Shown in pieces: positions 5,234 to 44,949 of a stretch of 64,000 bases of DNA (its first letter is position 1; the number at the start of each line of letters is the position of its first letter). The notes beneath the pieces are model-generated. The model searched no databases. It saw only the letters and a program-made list of their open reading frames with translations, and was not told the DNA's origin. Source of the DNA: an uncultured Clostridia bacterium (lineage in GTDB: Bacteria > Bacillota > Clostridia > Monoglobales > Monoglobaceae); assembly GCA_910580105.1 (NCBI GenBank), contig CAJTWN010000008.1, positions 8,610 to 72,609 on the forward strand, read 5' to 3'. Both the position numbers and the translations under genes were made by a program.

Positions 5234-6790
5234 CTACCGGTCCAAAACAGCCAGCGCTGTCCGGATTCCGTCTAATGATGCACTCATAATACCCCCGGCA
5301 TATCCAGCCCCCTCACCAGCTGGATAAAGCCCGGCAAGACCAACACTTTGAAGGTTTTTATCCCGCGTGATACAAAGGGGCGCCGAGGTCCGCATCTCCA
5401 CACCGGTAAGAATCCCATCTCCAAGAGCAAAACCTTTCATTTTCCGCTCAAAATTCATCAGACCATCCCGCAGCGCCGCTGTAATAAAGGACGGCAAACA
5501 GTTCTTCAGTTCTGCAAACTTTACCTTCCCGGTAAATGAAGGACTGACCGATCCAAACGCAGCCGATGGCTGGTCTTTTAAGAAATCCCGTGCCAGTTGG
5601 ACCGGCGCTGCATAGTCCTCCCCGCCAAGCACAAAGGCCAAATGTTCATATTTACGCTGAAATTCTATTCCTCCCAATGGGGTATTTCCATAATCCTCCG
5701 GACGCACATTTACAACCAAAGCTGAATTTGAATTCTCCGCCATTCGGGCATGTTCACTCATTCCATTGATCACCAGCCGTCCTTCTTCAGAAGAAGCATT
5801 TACGATTGTTCCGCCGGGACACATACAAAAAGAATAACAGCTCCGCTCCTTTCCGTTGTAAACCAGCCGATAATTTGCCGTCGGCAGCCCCAAATTCTCC
5901 TGCCCATATTGCATTGCATCCACATAGGTTCTTTTATGTTCAATCCGAACACCGGCTGCAAACGCTTTGGGCTGCAAAAAAACATTTCGCTCCGCCAGCA
6001 TTTGATAGGTATCTCTGCTGCTATGTCCAATTGCCAAAATGAGCGCTGAACAGGGAACAGATTCACTGTCATTCAGCACGATTCCACTAATTTTTTTATC
6101 GGTGATCTGCAAATCTGTCAATTCAGTCTGAAACCGTATTTCCACACCCATTTCAATTAATGCCTGCCGCATATTCTTTATTACATTTTTCAACAGGTCT
6201 GTTCCAATATGAGGATTAGCCCGGTATAAAATATCCCGCGGCGCCCCAAACTTAACAAAGGTATGAAGGATAAACCGTTGTCTCGGATCACTGATACGAG
6301 TATTTAATTTGCCATCCGAAAAAGTTCCCGCACCACCTTCACCAAACTGAACATTTGAATTGGGTTTCAATATCCCATTTTTCCAGAACCGTTCTACATC
6401 TTCGGTTCTCTTATCCACATTTTCTCCCCGTTCCACCAAAAGCGGCGGATTTCCGGATTGTGCCAAAACATATGCTGCAAACAGTCCGCAAGGCCCCATT
6501 CCCACCACAACTGGCCGGTGACGAAGGTCTCTTTGTGGAATTTCCAGCGACTGGATTTCTTGAAACGTTTGGATTTTTTCATCATCCGGCTGGGTTCCGT
6601 CCGGACATTCCGCAAGAACTGAATAAATGAAATGAATATTATGTTTTCTCCTGGCATCAATAGACTGTTTATAGATACAAAAATTTTTTGCAGAAACAGA
6701 AGCAGACCGCACAATTTCTTGTGCGGCCGCAATTACCTGTTGTTCTGTATGCCCAACCGGCATTTTTATATTTTGAATGATAATTTTCAT
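5234..6790 (-). CDS. FAD-dependent protein (COG2509-like NAD(FAD)-utilising dehydrogenase)
   Basis: Dinucleotide-binding VVVGMGPCGLFAA. FGEGGAGTFSDGKL motif typical of this uncharacterised family. 518 aa. Confidence 0.8.
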   Translation of the reverse strand: MKIIIQNIKMPVGHTEQQVIAAAQEIVRSASVSAKNFCIYKQSIDARRKHNIHFIYSVLAECPDGTQPDDEKIQTFQEIQSLEIPQRDLRHRPVVVGMGPCGLFAAYVLAQSGNPPLLVERGENVDKRTEDVERFWKNGILKPNSNVQFGEGGAGTFSDGKLNTRISDPRQRFILHTFVKFGAPRDILYRANPHIGTDLLKNVIKNMRQALIEMGVEIRFQTELTDLQITDKKISGIVLNDSESVPCSALILAIGHSSRDTYQMLAERNVFLQPKAFAAGVRIEHKRTYVDAMQYGQENLGLPTANYRLVYNGKERSCYSFCMCPGGTIVNASSEEGRLVINGMSEHARMAENSNSALVVNVRPEDYGNTPLGGIEFQRKYEHLAFVLGGEDYAAPVQLARDFLKDQPSAAFGSVSPSFTGKVKFAELKNCLPSFITAALRDGLMNFERKMKGFALGDGILTGVEMRTSAPLCITRDKNLQSVGLAGLYPAGEGAGYAGGIMSASLDGIRTALAVLDR

Positions 6791-29372: not shown

Positions 29373-32000
29373 ATGGCAAAAGAACTTCCAAAAACATATG
29401 ACCCGAAGCAGGTCGAACAAAAAATTTATGATACCTGGGTTGAAAAAGGTTATTTTCATGCTGAGGTTGACCATGATAAAAAACCATTCACCATCGTCAT
29501 TCCTCCGCCAAATGTCACCGGCCAATTGCATATGGGGCACGCATTGGATGAAACCTTTCAGGATATTTTAATCCGTACAAAACGGATGCAGGGCTATAAT
29601 GCTCTTTGGATTCCGGGAACCGACCACGCCGGTATCGCCACGCAAATTAAGGTGGAAGAAGATATTCGCGTTAATGAAGGTCTTACCCGTTATGATCTTG
29701 GCCGTGAAGAATTTTTGAATCGGGTCTGGGCTTGGAAAGAAAAATTCGGCGACCGTATCATTAATCAGTTAAAAAAAATCGGTTGTTCCTGCGACTGGGA
29801 CAGGGAACGGTTTACCATGGATGAAGGCTGTTCAAAAGCAGTAAAAGAAGTTTTTGTCAATCTTTACAACAAAGGCCTCATTTACCAGGGGTCCCGTATC
29901 ATCAACTGGTGTCCGCACTGTATCACCGCACTCTCTGATGCGGAGGTTGAACACGAGGAACAGGCCGGACACTTCTGGCACATCAAATATCCAATCAAAG
30001 ACGATGACGGTTACGTAATCATAGCCACCACCCGTCCGGAAACTCTTCTCGGCGATACTGCTGTTGCCGTCAATCCGGAAGATGAACGCTATCAGGATTT
30101 GATTGGCAAGACATTGATTCTTCCCCTGGTTAATCGAGAAATCCCTGTAATCGCAGACGCGTATGTTGACAAAGAATTTGGTACCGGCTGTGTAAAAATT
30201 ACACCTGCCCATGACCCCAACGACTTCGAGGTCGGACAACGCCATCATCTGGAACAAATCCGCATAATGAATGATGATGCGACCATCAACAGTTATGGCG
30301 GCAAATATGAAGGAATGGATCGCTATGAAGCAAGAAAGGCAATCGTAAAGGATCTGGAAGACCTTGGCCTCCTTGTCAAAGTTGAAGATCATAGCCATAA
30401 CGTTGGCCAATGTTACCGCTGCGGTACAACTGTAGAGCCTATCACTTCTAAGCAATGGTTTGTAAAGATGAAACCTTTGGCACAGCCAGCCATTGATGCT
30501 GTAAAAAACGGCGATACAAATTTTGTTCCTGAACACTTTGAAAAAGTATATTTCCACTGGCTGGAAAATATCCGCGACTGGTGTATTTCCCGTCAGCTGT
30601 GGTGGGGACACCAGATACCAGCCTTTTACTGTGATGACTGCGGTGAAATGGTTGTAACCAAGGAAGATTCTCCTGTATGTTCCAAATGCGGCAAACCAAT
30701 GCGGCAAGACCCAGACACACTGGACACCTGGTTCAGTTCTGCTCTCTGGCCTTTTTCAACCTTGGGATGGCCGGACAAAACACCGGAACTTGCATATTTC
30801 TATCCGACCAGCACATTAGTCACCGGATATGACATCATCCCCTTCTGGGTTATGCGAATGATGTTCTCCGGCCTGGAACATACCGGTCAGGTTCCCTTCC
30901 GCGATGTGTACATCCATGGTCTTGTCCGTGACAGTCAGGGCAGAAAGATGAGCAAATCCCTGGGCAATGGTATTGACCCTCTTGAAATTATAGACCAATA
31001 CGGTGCAGATGCTCTGCGCTTTACCCTTGCAACCGGTAATTCACCGGGCAACGATATGCGCTTTTATATTGAACGTGTAGAAGCGAGCCGGAACTTTGCA
31101 AACAAAATTTGGAATGCTTCCCGTTTTGTTCTTATGAACCTGAATATAACAGATTATGTGATTCCAGACAAAAATGCGCTTTGCCTGGAGGATCAATGGA
31201 TCCTTTCCGAATATAATACACTTGTCAAAGAAGTGACTGAAAACTTGGATAAGTACGAGCTTGGAATTGCCGTTTCCAAACTCTATGACTTCATTTGGGA
31301 TAAATTCTGTGACTGGTATATCGAACTTGTAAAACCTCGTTTCTTTGAAGAAGGAGAAAGTAATGTTACTGCACAGCAGGTTTTGGTCTATGTTCTTTCC
31401 AATACGCTGAAACTTCTGCATCCCTTTATGCCTTTTATTACCGAAGAGATTTGGCAGGCTCTGCCTCACGACGGCGAGAGCATAATGATTTCTGATTTCC
31501 CGGTCTATAATGACTGCTGGAAAAACACAAAAGCTGAACAGGATATGCAGCTTATTATGGGAGCGATTAAGGGCGTACGAAACATTCGCAGTGAAATGAA
31601 TGTACCGCCCTCTAAAAAATCAAAACTTTTTATCATTACTGATGAAAAAGAAATTTTCCTTCAGGGAGAAAAATTCTATCAAAAATTAGCTTCCGCTTCT
31701 GATGTTGCATTTTGCGGCAATGCTTCTGAAGCACCGGAAAACAGCGTTTCTGTCGTTGTTGAAGGCGCCGAAATACGGATGCCCCTTGATGAACTGGTTG
31801 ACCGAGAAAAAGAAATCATCCGTTTGGAAAAGGAACAAAAACGTTTAGAAGGTGAAATCAAACGCGTTGAAGGCAAATTAAACAACAAAGGATTCACAGA
31901 AAAAGCTCCCGCCCATGTGGTTGAAGAAGAACGCAAAAAAGGTGAAAGCTATCAGGAGATGTTGGAAAAAGTAATTGAAAGCCTTGCAAAATTAAAATAA
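29373..32000 (+). CDS. valS: valine--tRNA ligase
   Basis: HIGH-type motif (GQLHMGHA), KMSKS, and a C-terminal coiled coil. 875 aa. Upstream TTGCTT-17-TATAAT promoter at about 29297..29325. Confidence 0.97.
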
Positions 32001-32045
32001 GCACATAATATTCTCCCATAAAAATTGAATTTAACGCCAAAAATA

Positions 32046-32090
32046 AAAGAAAGAGATGAACATTTTGTTTGTATCTCTTTCTTTTTTATT
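32046..32090 (+). terminator. rho-independent terminator of valS
   Basis: AAAGAAAGAGAT/ATCTCTTTCTTT 12-bp stem plus a T-run. Confidence 0.8.
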
Positions 32091-32201
32091 ATCTTATTTT
32101 TCTTCTATTTTAATGTAACACGTTCAAGAGCATATTGGCCGTCATATAAATATTCCTCTGTATTTATGGTAAAATAAACGGGAAAGGAAGTTGATGGTAT
32201 T

Positions 32202-33050
32202 ATGAAAAAACATTTGACAAAAAACATGTTGACAGAATTCAGACAGCATCTAATTGATGATGAAAAATCCTCTGCCACACTGGAAAAATATATGCGGGAT
32301 TTAAAAACATTTTATTTGTGGCTAAACAACAGAAAATTGGAAAAAAGTATCGTGATTGCATACAAAGAATATCTGATTAATAATTATCAAACCACAAGTG
32401 TAAATTCTATGCTTTCTTCGTTAAATAGTTTTTTCGTTTTCAATGGTTGGTATGCGTTGAAAGTAAAAACAATAAAGACACAAAAACAACTGTTCATCCC
32501 GTCCGAGAAAGAACTAACAAAAAATGAATATGAAAGACTATTAAGAACCGCATACAATAAAAAGAATAAACGCTTATATTATATCATGCAAACTATTTGC
32601 GCCAGCGGGATACGAATATCTGAACTGCAGTTTATTACGGTTGAAGCGGTAAAAAGCAAAAAAGCCGAAGTAAGATGCAAAGGAAAAAACCGAACCATTA
32701 TCCTGCCTGACAGTTTATGTAAAATCCTGAATAATTATATAAAAGAAAGACATATAAAAAACGGCTGTATTTTCATAACAAAAAATGGAACGCCTATCAA
32801 TCGTTCAAACATATGGACAGACATGAAAAAATTATGCGATGAGGCCCAGGTTTCCCATTCCAAAGTTTTTCCTCATAATCTCCGCCATTTATTTGCTCGC
32901 ACTTTTTATTCCCAGCAAAAAGATATTGTCCGCCTGGCTGATATACTTGGCCATTCAAATATGAATACCACACGAATTTATACCATTGAAAGCGGAGACA
33001 TACACAGACAGATTCTTCAAAAGCTTGACCTTGTTTGTCCGTATATATAA
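32202..33050 (+). CDS. tyrosine site-specific recombinase (phage-integrase/Xer family)
   Basis: SAM-like N-domain and catalytic signature R (SGIRISEL), HNLRHLF, LGHSNMNTTRIY. 282 aa. Confidence 0.85.
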   Translation: MKKHLTKNMLTEFRQHLIDDEKSSATLEKYMRDLKTFYLWLNNRKLEKSIVIAYKEYLINNYQTTSVNSMLSSLNSFFVFNGWYALKVKTIKTQKQLFIPSEKELTKNEYERLLRTAYNKKNKRLYYIMQTICASGIRISELQFITVEAVKSKKAEVRCKGKNRTIILPDSLCKILNNYIKERHIKNGCIFITKNGTPINRSNIWTDMKKLCDEAQVSHSKVFPHNLRHLFARTFYSQQKDIVRLADILGHSNMNTTRIYTIESGDIHRQILQKLDLVCPYI

Positions 33051-33053
33051 AAA

Positions 33054-33075
33054 AACAACATAATTTGTATTATGT
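33054..33075. repeat. left arm of a perfect 22-bp inverted repeat (AACAACATAATTTGTATTATGT)
   Basis: Exact reverse complement of 33276..33297, checked base by base. Begins 3 bp after the recombinase stop codon. Confidence 0.95.
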
Positions 33076-33113
33076 CGTTGAATAAACTTTTAAAATACAT
33101 ATGAATTTTTTTT

Positions 33114-33142
33114 ATTATAGCATCCGAATTATTTTTTGTCAA
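33114..33142 (-). promoter_or_regulatory. perfect consensus sigma-A promoter inside the IR-bounded segment, currently firing leftwards
   Basis: Minus-strand TTGACA (33142..33137), 17 nt, TATAAT (33119..33114). Confidence 0.7.
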
Positions 33143-33275
33143 TAAATTCTGGAATTTTCACATATAGGCTTCCTGTTTTCAGACCAAAGGCAAAAATATA
33201 CTATGCCATGGTTTAATTCGTGTGAAAAAATGATACAAACTTGTGTTTTTAAGCCACAACTATCATTGCCTTAGT

Positions 33276-33297
33276 ACATAATACAAATTATGTTGTT
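33276..33297. repeat. right arm of the 22-bp inverted repeat
   Basis: ACATAATACAAATTATGTTGTT is the reverse complement of 33054..33075. Confidence 0.95.
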
Positions 33298-33379
33298 AAT
33301 TAAAAGTAACTTTGAAAGTACAACTCAAATTGGTTACAATCCAATATTTAAAACTTATGATTGAAAGAGGCGAATAACA

Positions 33380-33604
33380 TTGGATGATTTGTTTGAAAAA
33401 ATGAAACAGTATGCAAATTGTAAGTATATATCAGATTTAAAATTTGGAGATGCAAACAAAACAGCAAAAAAAATGCTGAAAGAAATAGATGTGACTGAAT
33501 ACTCTTTATCCACTCTAAATGATGTTGCTGAGTATTTATTCGAAAACAAACAAACTTTTCATAATATTCAACAGGCAAGCATATTTTTCAAAACATACAA
33601 ATAA
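33380..33604 (+). CDS. hypothetical 74-aa protein (TTG start)
   Basis: ORF with AAGAGG 9 nt upstream of the TTG, followed by a terminator. No family recognised. Confidence 0.4.
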   Translation: MDDLFEKMKQYANCKYISDLKFGDANKTAKKMLKEIDVTEYSLSTLNDVAEYLFENKQTFHNIQQASIFFKTYK

Positions 33605-33672
33605 AAAATACTGTGTTACTTTATCAGGTATCCCCCCTCCTTTCAGACTTATCTGATAACGTCTTTCGATAC

Positions 33673-33706
33673 AGACAGCCATTCATATGCGGCTGTCTTT
33701 TTTATT
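33673..33706 (+). terminator. rho-independent terminator
   Basis: AGACAGCC/GGCTGTCT stem followed by TTTTTATT. Confidence 0.7.
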
Positions 33707-33851
33707 AAAAAATTTTCTCTTTTTTTGAATTAATAAGAAACGCAATGATTGCTTGGTTTTATTTTATTAACATATTTCACTAACTTTTAATTTCCCAGAC
33801 TTGACATAGAGGCTTACAATTGATACCATAGCTAGAAAAGGAGATGATTTC

Positions 33852-34997
33852 TTGAATCCATTAAAATCCTGCCTGGGCGGAAAATTACTTAAACCGGAAA
33901 AAGATGAAGTTACAGGCGTTATATCTTACAAATTATACAATCCCGATAATCGAATACAGCAAAACTTTTATTTCACATCTGTAAGCATGTCTTCAGATGA
34001 TAGATTCCTTATCTATATCTCCTCAACACCTGACGACAAGAAACAAAATCTTTGGATTGCAGACTTTCAATTAGAAGAAACAAGACCTCTGACAACAAAA
34101 GGATTTGATGTCGAGTCCTGTGTTTTGGATGAAAAAAGGGGCAAGGTATGGTACGCAAGAGACGGCGTATGTTATGGCGTAAACATCGAAGACAAGACCG
34201 TTGGCCGGGAGGAAAAGCTGTTTGAATTCCCTGCTGAAATTTCAAATGGCCGACCTGTAAAAACCTTCAGCAACCATCTTTCTTTTAACGGAGAAAACAA
34301 TCGGGTCGCATACAGCGGAAATGTAGGAAAATACTGGTATGTGGGCTATTATGACCTTGAAACAAAGCAGCACACAATTTTTCACAAATCCATCGGAAAA
34401 GCAACACATGTACAATATGCACCTGACAACAGCAACAGAATTTTATTTTGTCACGACTGGTGGCAATCCGAAGAAACCGGCGAAAAACATACCTGGGATC
34501 ACCGTCTTTGGCTGTATGATGATAGCCTGAAAGAGGTAAATCCCATCTACTATCATGAGCATGAAATGGATGTTTCCCACACACCTTTTCATGAATTTTG
34601 GAAAAAGGACGGCGCCTGTATCTATTTATGTGATATTCCGCACGGCGTTGTAAAGCATAACCCGGCAGAACCTGACAAATATGAACTGGTATGGGAAGGA
34701 CGACATGCACATGCGCACTGTGATTCCACCGGAACGCACTTTGTTTCAGATATAAATACCTATGCGTGGGTAGACGGTACACTCAGCAGTATAGCATATT
34801 TTAATAAAGAAACCGGAAAAGAAGGATATATTTCTCTTACCGTCCCACCGGCAATGAAATTTCCCAATAAAGATGGACGTCATTATCACCCGCATCCGCA
34901 TCCGACCTTCTCTCCCTCCGACAGATGGATTATATATGGAAATACCAAACATTCACAGATGAATCTAAGCATTGTTGACTGTGAAGACATTTTTTAA
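33852..34997 (+). CDS. oligogalacturonate-lyase-like (PL22-like) beta-propeller protein
   Basis: 381 aa. C-terminal HYHPHPHPTFSPSD motif and overall layout resemble the Ogl family. TTG start with AAGGAG RBS. Own TTGACA-17-TACCAT promoter at about 33800..33828. Confidence 0.55.
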   Translation: MNPLKSCLGGKLLKPEKDEVTGVISYKLYNPDNRIQQNFYFTSVSMSSDDRFLIYISSTPDDKKQNLWIADFQLEETRPLTTKGFDVESCVLDEKRGKVWYARDGVCYGVNIEDKTVGREEKLFEFPAEISNGRPVKTFSNHLSFNGENNRVAYSGNVGKYWYVGYYDLETKQHTIFHKSIGKATHVQYAPDNSNRILFCHDWWQSEETGEKHTWDHRLWLYDDSLKEVNPIYYHEHEMDVSHTPFHEFWKKDGACIYLCDIPHGVVKHNPAEPDKYELVWEGRHAHAHCDSTGTHFVSDINTYAWVDGTLSSIAYFNKETGKEGYISLTVPPAMKFPNKDGRHYHPHPHPTFSPSDRWIIYGNTKHSQMNLSIVDCEDIF

Positions 34998-35073
34998 TTA
35001 ACCGGTATAGTTTATGGTAGCTCATATGCCATAAAATGCCGCACGGATGTATATCGTACGGCATTAATTTATC

Positions 35074-36696
35074 TTATATCAATTTTACATCTTCGTACAC
35101 AGAAGTAATATCAAACAGCATTTTTCTGTTATAGTCTGCCATATAACAAATCCCATCCGCATATTCAAACCGGATTTTCTGCGGATCATTTTCAATCTGA
35201 AACACTTTTCGAAAATATTCATTCCGCAAAAGAGTTGTCACCCTTTTCTGAAACCCCTCCGGACGAACCGGTCTTGAAAATGCCGGCATTGGCCAATTTT
35301 GATTATGTAAAAGGAAATCTTCTACCAATGCCTTCCAAATATGGTCGCCATATTTCTCATAAAGGATCGTATACCAATTCTGTCGTTTTACCTTCCCCAT
35401 ACGAGTCTGTTCCTTATAAAGAGCGCCCAGTTCTTCAAATTTTTCAAATGCCTTTTCTTCTGTCAAAACTGCAATTGTCCTTGCAAAAATCCCACTGTTA
35501 TAAAAAAGCTCCACTGCTTCTTCTATTTCTTTCAGATGTAATATTTCCTGATAAGAAAGCCATTGGGTTGCAATTACCTCATAAGGTGGAAAATCAACAG
35601 CTGTAATCCCTTTAAATTCTTCAATCGGCGTACCGCTGAGCACCTTCAGAAAACCGAGCTGTAACATTTGTGGCCGCAACGCGTAGACATCATTAAAAGA
35701 TTTACGAAAAGACTGCATATCCTCAAAGGGAAGTCCGGCAATCAAGTCCAGATGGATGTGCATATTGCCGGCCTCCACCAGTCTGCGGATATTTCGTTCA
35801 GCCCGCTCCGCATTCCAGCCGCGGCCAACCGACTCCAATGTTTTGGAATTTGTACTTTGCACTCCAATTTCCAGCTGGAACATTCCTTTGGGCGCAGAGG
35901 ACAACAAGAGGATAAATTCATCTGTCAAAATCTGCGGTTCAACTTCCATATGAACACAGGTCTTTTTACTGTGGGCAAGTATAAAACGCACAATTTCTTC
36001 CGCACGTTTTGCATTACAGTTGAATGTCCGGTCAACCAATTTTATAAGCGGTACTTCCATTTCAAAAAAAGTAAGCAGACCCTGCTTTACATATTCCAGC
36101 GGAAAAAAGCGCACCTTATGTTCCGCCGCCGAAAGACAATAAGCACAATTGAACGGACATCCCCTGGAAGTTTCAAAATAAATCAGCTTATTTTTCAGGC
36201 TTTCTATATCCTCCCGGGTATAGGGAAACACCACCGTGTCAAGTTCCATCGGCGGCCGCGGAACAAACTTTCCATTTTGGGTCACAACCCCGGGAATCCC
36301 TTCCAGGCACTTTCCTTCCTGCACTGCCTTTAACAATTCTCCCAGGGTGATCTCCCCCTCTCCATGGAGGATACAGGTAATAAAATCATATTGTAAAAGC
36401 AATTTTTCAGCATTATACCCAGCTTCCGGACCGCCAAGTACAATATGGACATGAGGCAGCGCACACTTTACCATCTGCGCCAATTTCAATGTCATTTCTA
36501 TATTCCAGATATAGCAGGAAAAGCAATAAACCTGCGCATTTCTTTCGCACAATTCCGCATACATATCGCCCAACCGGTCATTGATGCTGAATTCAGCAAG
36601 TTCTATATCAAACTGAGAATTATATGCCTTTAAATATCGGATTGCAAGAGAGGAATGGCTGTATCTTGCATTGATTGCCGTTAACACTGTCTTCAT
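35074..36696 (-). CDS. B12-binding-domain radical SAM protein (DUF4080-type)
   Basis: N-terminal B12-binding-like domain, CxxxCxxC (RGCPFNCAYC), long C-terminal extension. 540 aa. Confidence 0.85.
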   Translation of the reverse strand: MKTVLTAINARYSHSSLAIRYLKAYNSQFDIELAEFSINDRLGDMYAELCERNAQVYCFSCYIWNIEMTLKLAQMVKCALPHVHIVLGGPEAGYNAEKLLLQYDFITCILHGEGEITLGELLKAVQEGKCLEGIPGVVTQNGKFVPRPPMELDTVVFPYTREDIESLKNKLIYFETSRGCPFNCAYCLSAAEHKVRFFPLEYVKQGLLTFFEMEVPLIKLVDRTFNCNAKRAEEIVRFILAHSKKTCVHMEVEPQILTDEFILLLSSAPKGMFQLEIGVQSTNSKTLESVGRGWNAERAERNIRRLVEAGNMHIHLDLIAGLPFEDMQSFRKSFNDVYALRPQMLQLGFLKVLSGTPIEEFKGITAVDFPPYEVIATQWLSYQEILHLKEIEEAVELFYNSGIFARTIAVLTEEKAFEKFEELGALYKEQTRMGKVKRQNWYTILYEKYGDHIWKALVEDFLLHNQNWPMPAFSRPVRPEGFQKRVTTLLRNEYFRKVFQIENDPQKIRFEYADGICYMADYNRKMLFDITSVYEDVKLI

Positions 36697-41566: not shown

Positions 41567-41581
41567 TGTAAATACTACTAT

Positions 41582-41631
41582 TATCCAAATAGAAAAGGAC
41601 TGCTGCCACGCGGTCTTTTTCTATTTGGATA
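41582..41631. terminator. 15-bp perfect-stem hairpin between convergent genes
   Basis: TATCCAAATAGAAAA...TTTTCTATTTGGATA with a 20-nt loop. No clean U-tract. Confidence 0.5.
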
Positions 41632-41688
41632 ACACAGTTTATATAAATACCGTTAATCTTCGCGCCTGATTCTCTATACATTCATATT

Positions 41689-44895: not shown

Positions 44896-44938
44896 AACTG
44901 TATATATCGTATATTAACAGTATATACGATATATACAG
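44896..44938. promoter_or_regulatory. 18-bp perfect inverted repeat operator overlapping the GntR operon promoter
   Basis: ACTGTATATATCGTATAT-7 nt-ATATACGATATATACAGT. Minus-strand TTGACA (44947..44942) and TATACT (44923..44918) flank or overlap it. Confidence 0.6.
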
Positions 44939-44949
44939 TTTTGTCAAGC

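Follow-up and report, generated by a model that had tools for sequence, protein, structure and literature searches.

Does a short AT-rich segment beside a tyrosine recombinase gene of an uncultured Clostridia bacterium invert, and if so, what does it control? The segment lies within 64,000 nucleotides (nt) of contig CAJTWN010000008.1 (assembly GCA_910580105.1, family Monoglobaceae); we call this whole stretch the window and use its positions throughout. The original prediction, made from the sequence, had read the segment as an invertible promoter switch (inverton) that is bracketed by inverted repeats and abuts the gene of its recombinase. Comparing public assemblies, we found the segment in both orientations within the species, with breakpoints exactly at the repeats, and the locus is very probably an actively inverting promoter switch. 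Its cargo in the window is a single gene for a small, unannotated protein of 74 amino acids.

The switch and its two orientations

The predicted anatomy was reproduced in every part. The repeat AACAACATAATTTGTATTATGT recurs as its exact reverse complement on the far side of a 200-nt interior, and three bases (33051-33053) separate the left arm from the stop codon of the recombinase gene (Table 1). Searched with up to three mismatches, the 22-mer occurs at only two places in the window and at none in 100 dinucleotide-preserving shuffles, and the two arms form the sole perfect long-range inverted repeat of at least 16 nt across the 64 kb. Read off the sequence, each arm contains a 7-4-7 palindrome whose centre is asymmetric, ACATAAT-TTGT-ATTATGT; no further copy of this putative core site was found in the window, even with a free centre and two mismatches. 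At 28% GC, compared with 41% across the window, the interior is AT-rich; it holds a textbook promoter, TTGACA and TATAAT with a 17-nt spacer on the minus strand, which is the only 12/12 consensus match within 31500-35500. Its position on that strand aims it back into the 3' end of the recombinase gene. After a flip, the promoter would occupy 33209-33237 on the plus strand, with its -10 element at 33232-33237, pointing toward the TTG-start open reading frame (ORF) at 33380-33604.

The evidence for inversion came from public assemblies that carry exact copies of the recombinase, its one-residue variant or the 74-residue protein. This lookup gave 30 loci of the same species, from the NCBI metagenome-assembled genome (MAG) GCA_949119495.1, ENA metagenome assemblies and Logan assemblies. 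Two were duplicates, and one of the remaining 28 (L009) could not be assigned an orientation, its contig stopping at the repeat, leaving 27 independent assemblies, each a consensus and one per sample. The segment lies as in the window in 19 of the 27 and is flipped in eight (L003, L006, L013, L016, L026, L027, L031 and L033), in which the interior is exactly reverse-complemented, the arms are unchanged and the flanks are collinear; the inversion breakpoints coincide exactly with the repeats. The flipped orientation, whose absence the original prediction had named as its refutation, therefore exists in consensus assemblies, as distinct from reads.

Flipped and unflipped loci share their genetic backgrounds. 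Over 2.2-kb flanks, the flipped L026, L027, L031 and L033 show no difference from the unflipped L011, L017, L019 and L028; flipped L013 is nearest in its flanks to unflipped L015, and by the same comparison at least four backgrounds contain flips. These identical flanks and the recurrence in at least four backgrounds argue against an old split between lineages. The L009 contig terminates on the last base of the left arm, which would be the point at which a de Bruijn graph branches if both orientations coexisted in that sample. In the diverged strain L016, the flanks differ by ~2.5% (47-57 differences over 2.2 kb) and the switch differs more, with an interior of 193 nt. Both 22-nt arms are nevertheless perfect in this strain and both promoter hexamers are retained, which we read as pointing to selection. 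Three related species groups likewise show both orientations of their recombinase-repeat pairs across different assemblies. Collectively, the flips within the species, the identical flanks and the flips in relatives bear out the inverton reading; on the same basis, the window would represent the OFF state for the downstream gene and, at the same time, a state in which the promoter is antisense to the recombinase, as had been proposed.

Some further elements were seen in or around the switch. The motif TTGGTCTGAAA (about 33178-33188) stands 45 nt upstream of the -35 element on the promoter strand, both in the window and in L016. In a related switch, P0078 (L063/L064, 2288-2341), TTGGTCTGAAA is present as an inverted pair of 19 nt that lies 57-88 nt upstream of the -35 element, and two others (P0322 and P0096) are without it; an accessory factor may bind this motif. 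An orientation-specific terminator of the kind found in the Escherichia coli fim switch was considered and rejected, as both ends of the interior, and two relatives, fold no better than shuffles (z-scores -0.9 to +1.9). Apart from the switch arms, the inverted pairs in the window are local hairpins or palindromes and one imperfect pair (84% complementary, 1300 nt apart). Two of the hairpins, a perfect one of 19 nt with a 7-nt loop at 44896-44940 and one of 23 nt (91% complementary, 6-nt loop) at 41581-41632, are probably terminators or operators. The window contains no rRNA gene.

Recombinase, core site and related switches

In addition to its integrase domain, the recombinase has an N-terminal SAM-like domain. 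Its closest solved structure is XerA (4a8e, E = 3e-20), to which the catalytic residues R138, K162, H225, R228, H251 and Y260 align; all six are invariant among six homologues. With the R-K-H-R-H/W-Y set complete, the protein is assigned by its sequence to the tyrosine recombinase superfamily. It falls below the cut-offs of all named families compared, scoring 138.1 bits against the XerA model (cut-off 220), 126 against XerD (329.6) and 117.2 against XerC (335), and 31.7 and 25.3 bits against the NCBIfam FimB/FimE models PRK09870 and PRK09871 (221 and 222). This adjoining enzyme presumably performs the inversion.

In the core sites of tyrosine recombinases, such as loxP and dif, the standard layout is a pair of inverted half-sites, to which the enzyme binds, on either side of an asymmetric region where crossover takes place; inversion results when two such sites stand in opposite polarity. 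The arms of the present switch have a comparable layout, and their half-sites are common to homologous recombinases at 53-67% identity, which are accompanied by ACATAAT-N4-ATTATGT pairs with other centres (Table 1). Different half-sites, ACCACGGAA-TAATCC-TTCCGTGGT, accompany the homologue that has diverged furthest (46% identity). Core pairs with the same TTGT centre occur in four other Clostridia genomes, one of them Ruthenibacterium lactatiformans. The records of the relatives are titled Clostridia or Ruthenibacterium, with the recombinase homologues named as integrases of an Oscillospiraceae bacterium, and equivalent promoters are present in their switches.

Two of the related loci depart from this pattern. 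In one member of the P0213 recombinase group (L036, from 3855), the left core is present, the DNA beyond it differs from that of other assemblies and the right arm is missing; the site may have recombined with a partner far away, the region may have been rearranged on a larger scale, or the contig may be chimeric. In a P0322 locus (L048, 3423-3668), the recombinase is called at only 81 residues and the promoter points toward the small gene, which may be a locked-ON variant or a sequencing error.

Table 1 Positions of the switch features in the window, and core-site centres beside three homologous recombinases
Feature	Position	Strand	Description
Tyrosine recombinase, presumed invertase	32202..33050	+	282 aa (amino acids); 3' end abuts switch; Pfam Phage_integrase 7e-29
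Left inverted-repeat arm	33054..33075	+	Putative core recombination site ACATAAT-TTGT-ATTATGT at 33058-33075
Invertible segment	33076..33275	.	200 nt; reverse-complemented in 8 assemblies, window orientation in 19
Promoter	33114..33142	-	-35 at 33142-33137, TG at 33122-33121, -10 at 33119-33114; 12/12 consensus, extended -10
Right inverted-repeat arm	33276..33297	-	Core site at 33276-33293; centre ACAA, reverse complement of TTGT
Fixed leader	33298..33379	+	82 nt; ribosome-binding site GAAAGAGG at 33363-33370
Cargo gene	33380..33604	+	TTG start; 74-aa protein, unannotated five-helix family
Intrinsic terminator (predicted)	33674..33703	+	Stem GACAGCC / GGCTGTC, 10-nt loop, T6
P0213			Recombinase about 67% identical to window enzyme; centre CTAC
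P0096			Recombinase 58% identical to window enzyme; centre TGCG
P0078			Recombinase 56% identical to window enzyme; centre CGAA

The site was then used as a search pattern. Two ACATAAT-N4-ATTATGT sites with 225-255 nt between them, both centres left free, matched at least 120 loci in metagenomes. Among the 120 matches listed, the two centres are exact reverse complements in 119, against a chance expectation of 1 in 256, and at least 54 different centres occur with the same half-sites. A homologous recombinase lies directly alongside in 114 of these listed matches, mostly 1-70 nt away, and its 3' end is toward the switch in all 114; in each of the six listed loci without one, the contig extends for less than 300 nt to one side. 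Promoters matching at least 10/12 of the consensus were found in 79 of the listed switches, facing the recombinase in 67 and the cargo in 12, with -10 ends at a median of 45 nt from the distal core.

The sampled cargo is varied, including a small Cro/C1-type helix-turn-helix protein, TetR-type regulators, a histidine kinase, an SPFH protein, an MmeI-like methyltransferase, a TRAP transporter, and large collagen-repeat and BspA-LRR surface proteins. From this coupling of enzyme, site and promoter with diverse cargo, it follows that the recombinase, the core-site pair and the promoter are a portable switch cassette, widespread in gut Clostridia. On the cargo side of L120, L122 and L162 stands a protein of ~220-240 residues, with similar N-terminal sequences in L122 and L162 to that in L120; the L120 protein has a weak match to the MmeI DNA-methyltransferase domain (25.8 bits, below the cut-off of 27), and the three could be phase-variable methyltransferases.

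The cargo gene and its protein family

As to the cargo, the original prediction has to be corrected: downstream of the switch stand one 74-residue gene and then a terminator, not an operon. The region 33600-33715 folds at -25.8 kcal/mol (z-score -4.9), and the following gene (33852) has a promoter-like site of its own at 33801-33829. This next gene is a 381-residue ORF (33852-34997, plus strand) whose only family match is a sub-threshold one to oligogalacturonate lyase (17 bits, cut-off 30), and it is kept beside the switch in all assemblies of the species.

A full HMMER scan returned 148 homologues of the 74-residue protein at E <= 1e-3, nearly all of 51-184 residues; one of 768 residues (P0086) was set aside as a spurious HEAT-repeat match. 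Residues C14, S18, D19, D48, Y52 and F60 are conserved in the family, and an AlphaFold2 model of the protein has five helices with a predicted local distance difference test (pLDDT) score of 91.6. Judged by such comparisons, the predicted product is a real, conserved protein. Nothing credible was found for it in Pfam, NCBIfam, PHROGs or PADLOC, nor was there a match in a profile search of PDB sequences, in a tblastn search of phages and plasmids, or, for the model, in Foldseek searches of PDB and BFVD at E <= 0.001. A likeness of the model to DnaA domain IV was weak (template modelling (TM) score about 0.4-0.48) and not significant, and was dropped.

The protein cluster also includes members of 104, 117 and 138 residues on contigs of 0.6-1.9 kb. 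Their N-terminal extensions are incompatible with the in-frame TGA of the window at 33362-33364, and these longer members may be sequence variants or contig-edge gene calls near the switch.

Does the small protein accompany such switches elsewhere? We sampled the genomic contexts of nine of its subfamilies. Four (those of the window, P0322, P0096 and P0078) stand behind a homologous tyrosine recombinase and a repeat pair, and two stand behind a serine recombinase (Resolvase), namely P0356 (Lacrimispora; L056, 2052-3255) and P0361 (L067, 1248-5246). In L056, a perfect 12-nt inverted repeat (2569-2580 and 2943-2954) spans the gap; no repeat pair was found in L067, L068 or L070. The remaining three subfamilies have no recombinase nearby, and one of them is in a conjugative-element context: in L052-L055 (3001-3210), a 69-residue homologue ends a TraG-like / 779-residue gene pair, beside a group II intron reverse transcriptase.

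The small gene thus lies just downstream of a recombinase gene in six of the nine subfamilies and is the first gene after it in five of these six; in P0361, an HU-like gene stands between the two. In two cases, genes for giant surface adhesins come immediately after it. Next after the P0078 gene is one for a protein of more than 2000 residues with a DUF6273 domain, and the P0361 loci (L067 to L070) have, besides the HU-like gene, a surface protein of more than 1300 residues with LRR, VWA and Cna_B domains. Among the 120 family switches listed, on the other hand, the small protein serves as cargo in only six. The idea that it might be an obligate partner of the recombinase was rejected on this share and on the three subfamilies without a nearby recombinase. 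Judged from these contexts, four with tyrosine and two with serine recombinases, and from the 6/120 share, the protein is a recurrent cargo of inversion switches and not an obligate partner.

Proposed mechanism, alternatives and comparison with known switches

In the mechanism that we propose, the recombinase would bind as dimers to both ACATAAT-TTGT-ATTATGT core sites, which would stand in opposite polarity because their 4-nt centres are asymmetric, and strand exchange within the centres would invert the 200-nt segment. In the orientation of the window, the strong promoter would fire leftward into the 3' end of the recombinase gene, leaving the cargo OFF and probably producing antisense transcription of that gene. 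Inversion would direct it rightward through the right arm and the 82-nt leader into the monocistronic 74-residue gene (ON), with transcripts that start near 33244 and read through the right arm. The promoter is thus presumed to be active, and the level of the 74-residue protein would change with its orientation.

Could the two orientations have another origin? Each public assembly shows a single consensus orientation, as would be seen if one or a few ancient inversions between chance repeats had been fixed as an old strain polymorphism. We consider this very unlikely, given that flipped and unflipped loci have identical 2.2-kb flanks, that flips occur in at least four backgrounds, that one contig breaks exactly at the repeat end, that the repeats are perfect in the diverged strain and that three related species groups are polymorphic in the same way. 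Still less credible is that the flipped contigs are assembly artefacts. Inverted repeats can indeed mislead assemblers, and several contigs end near the switch; however, the 22-nt repeat is shorter than the assembly k-mers, as indicated by k119 and k141 prefixes on some ENA contig names and by the k of 31 used in Logan assemblies, so that the flipped junctions should be spanned by real k-mers. Moreover, both states come from different assemblers and sources (NCBI MAG, ENA and Logan), and strain-specific single-nucleotide polymorphisms are retained in the flipped interiors. The recombinase might instead be a housekeeping Xer-type resolvase or a mobile-element integrase, with dif- or att-like repeats unrelated to gene control, a view that fits its best named matches (the XerA, XerD and XerC models and the XerA structure) and the make-up of the core, in which two half-sites enclose a centre as in dif or lox. 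This, too, is highly improbable: the scores of 117-138 bits are far under the family cut-offs of 220-335, the sites are paired in inverted orientation around a promoter, inversion was observed and excision was not, and the locus lies between valS and ordinary chromosomal genes in all assemblies.

A further possibility concerns what is being controlled. The switch might mainly regulate its own recombinase: antisense transcription in the OFF state would lower the invertase and stabilise OFF, the ON state would relieve this and flip back, and the 74-residue gene would be secondary. As the chief function this seems doubtful, although it deserves some weight, and it can coexist with control of the cargo. 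It accords with the recombinase 3' end facing the switch in 114 of 114 related loci among the matches listed, usually from 1-70 nt away, and with a scan of the region between the OFF-state promoter and the recombinase gene, in which no terminator-like site was seen. It also accords with the bias toward promoters that face the recombinase (67 versus 12 in the family among the matches listed, 19 versus 8 in the species) and with the same layout in fimE-fimS of E. coli, where fimE expression is orientation-dependent (PMC9993118). However, the fim effect involves a Rho-dependent terminator inside the switch and no antisense, no orientation-specific structure was found in the present interior, and the OFF bias is equally explicable by selection against cargo expression. 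Taken together, the tail-on recombinase, the lack of a terminator-like site and the OFF bias suggest that the OFF-state promoter may interfere with recombinase expression.

Some observations weigh against our preferred explanation, an inverting promoter that is flipped by the adjoining enzyme and sets the cargo gene ON or OFF. The orientation evidence consists of consensus assemblies with one orientation per sample. A weaker fixed promoter-like site, TTGAAA-17-TACAAT (33312-33340, plus strand, 10/12), stands between the right arm and the cargo gene, so that the OFF state may be leaky. In addition, the invertase could act in trans: another Clostridia MAG (L021) carries the same 22-nt repeat and shows no recombinase in the ~1.9 kb examined upstream of it, an arrangement that would imply a recombinase acting from elsewhere. 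There, the repeat surrounds a 12/12 promoter (6288-6467), with a 117-residue ORF upstream that is MazF/PemK-like by eye and a 463-residue protein with a signal-peptide-like N-terminus downstream.

Switches in which a tyrosine recombinase inverts a promoter are well established, as in fim and RecV systems. The closest described class is a recent one. A 2025 survey of the defined gut community hCom2 described inverton group 139, with a previously unpublished motif, as 33 invertons, 32 of them from Clostridia, in 17 strains (PMC11892184). The group has a close link to a recombinase of the tyrosine type ('invertase group 35'), whose gene stands beside nearly all of its members, in a 'non-regulatable' orientation. 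Its examples are short and intergenic, with repeats 14-26 nt long around interiors of 206-228 nt, and their shifts in orientation were measured by reads in culture (PMC11892184). The present locus agrees with the group in its Clostridia host, in the recombinase alongside, which is of the tyrosine type and in non-regulatable orientation, and in an interior within ~200-230 nt; it probably belongs to group 139, an assignment made by host, layout and size. That survey covers cultured strains, whereas the present species is uncultured, and it does not mention the half-site structure with a variable centre or the small-protein cargo (PMC11892184). The original prediction was aware of no description of this switch or its cargo: for the switch, the class turns out to be described in the survey; for the small-protein cargo, a limited literature search found no description. 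An exact-string literature search found the core strings in none of the papers searched.

The fim switch of E. coli resembles the present locus in several respects. In fimS, a tyrosine recombinase inverts a promoter segment of roughly 300 bp between short inverted repeats, and the fimE gene immediately upstream has its 3' end on the switch side; expression of the fim recombinase varies with orientation, and there is a population bias to OFF (PMC9993118). The enzyme here is nonetheless no FimB/FimE family member (25-32 bits against cut-offs of 221-222), it is one recombinase where fim has two, and no phase-variable terminator was detected in this interior. The repeats also differ, being 22 nt long with a lox-like internal palindrome here and 9 bp long in fimS. 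In Clostridioides difficile, published work describes RecV-dependent inversion for the switches cwpV, flgB, cmrRST and pdcB. These resemble the present switch in their Firmicutes host, tyrosine recombinase and short regulatory segments, which in the RecV systems lie upstream of surface, motility or signalling genes. The layouts differ in how the enzyme is supplied: a single trans-acting RecV serves several switches that are unlinked and vary in their repeats, whereas nearly every switch here has its own cis-encoded recombinase (114/120 matches listed).

The likeness to Mpi-type switches of Bacteroides that the original prediction had drawn holds for the layout, in which a promoter between inverted repeats drives a downstream locus, and fails for the enzyme. 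Mpi is a serine recombinase that acts globally, and the adjacent enzyme here is a local tyrosine recombinase. At the invertible polysaccharide promoters of Bacteroides, the first regulated gene likewise encodes a small protein, the regulator UpxY. Antiterminators of the UpxY family are enriched among the genes regulatable by invertons (PMC11892184); for the 74-residue protein, no similarity was detected to UpxY or any other named family. With Cre/loxP and XerCD/dif, the switch shares inverted half-sites around an asymmetric centre that sets polarity, opposite polarity leading to inversion. Its half-sites are shorter than those of loxP, with 7 nt of visible symmetry against 13 nt, and its function would be gene regulation instead of resolution or integration. 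Sites whose centres differ do not cross-react, as is the case for heterospecific lox sites.

What, then, does the small protein do? Our best guess is that it is a trans-acting regulatory factor expressed in a subpopulation. Going further, we can only tentatively propose that it belongs to an unrecognised family of trans-acting factors that has come recurrently under DNA inversion by tyrosine or serine recombinases and serves as a phase-variable regulator, possibly with an OFF-state antisense brake on the recombinase as a second layer. A limited literature search did not find the definition of the site by half-sites and a free centre, the strict tail-on placement of the recombinase, the OFF bias or the small-protein cargo family.

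With public assemblies as their sole source, and independently of reads, the results confirm a phase-variation switch in an uncultured Clostridia species of the human gut. They also give a site definition for a very large switch family, with fixed ACATAAT / ATTATGT half-sites, a free asymmetric centre and a cis-encoded, tail-on recombinase, which allows such switches to be found from sequence alone. The differing centres suggest how many paralogous switches can coexist without cross-recombining, and the compact orthogonal pairs of recombinase and site may be of use for engineering Clostridia. Finally, a small unannotated family with a confident predicted structure, recurring as a switch output, offers a lead to what phase variation controls in these bacteria; if the regulatory proposal is true, the small protein would correspond in Clostridia to UpxY/UpxZ or to phasevarion methyltransferases, in role though not in sequence.

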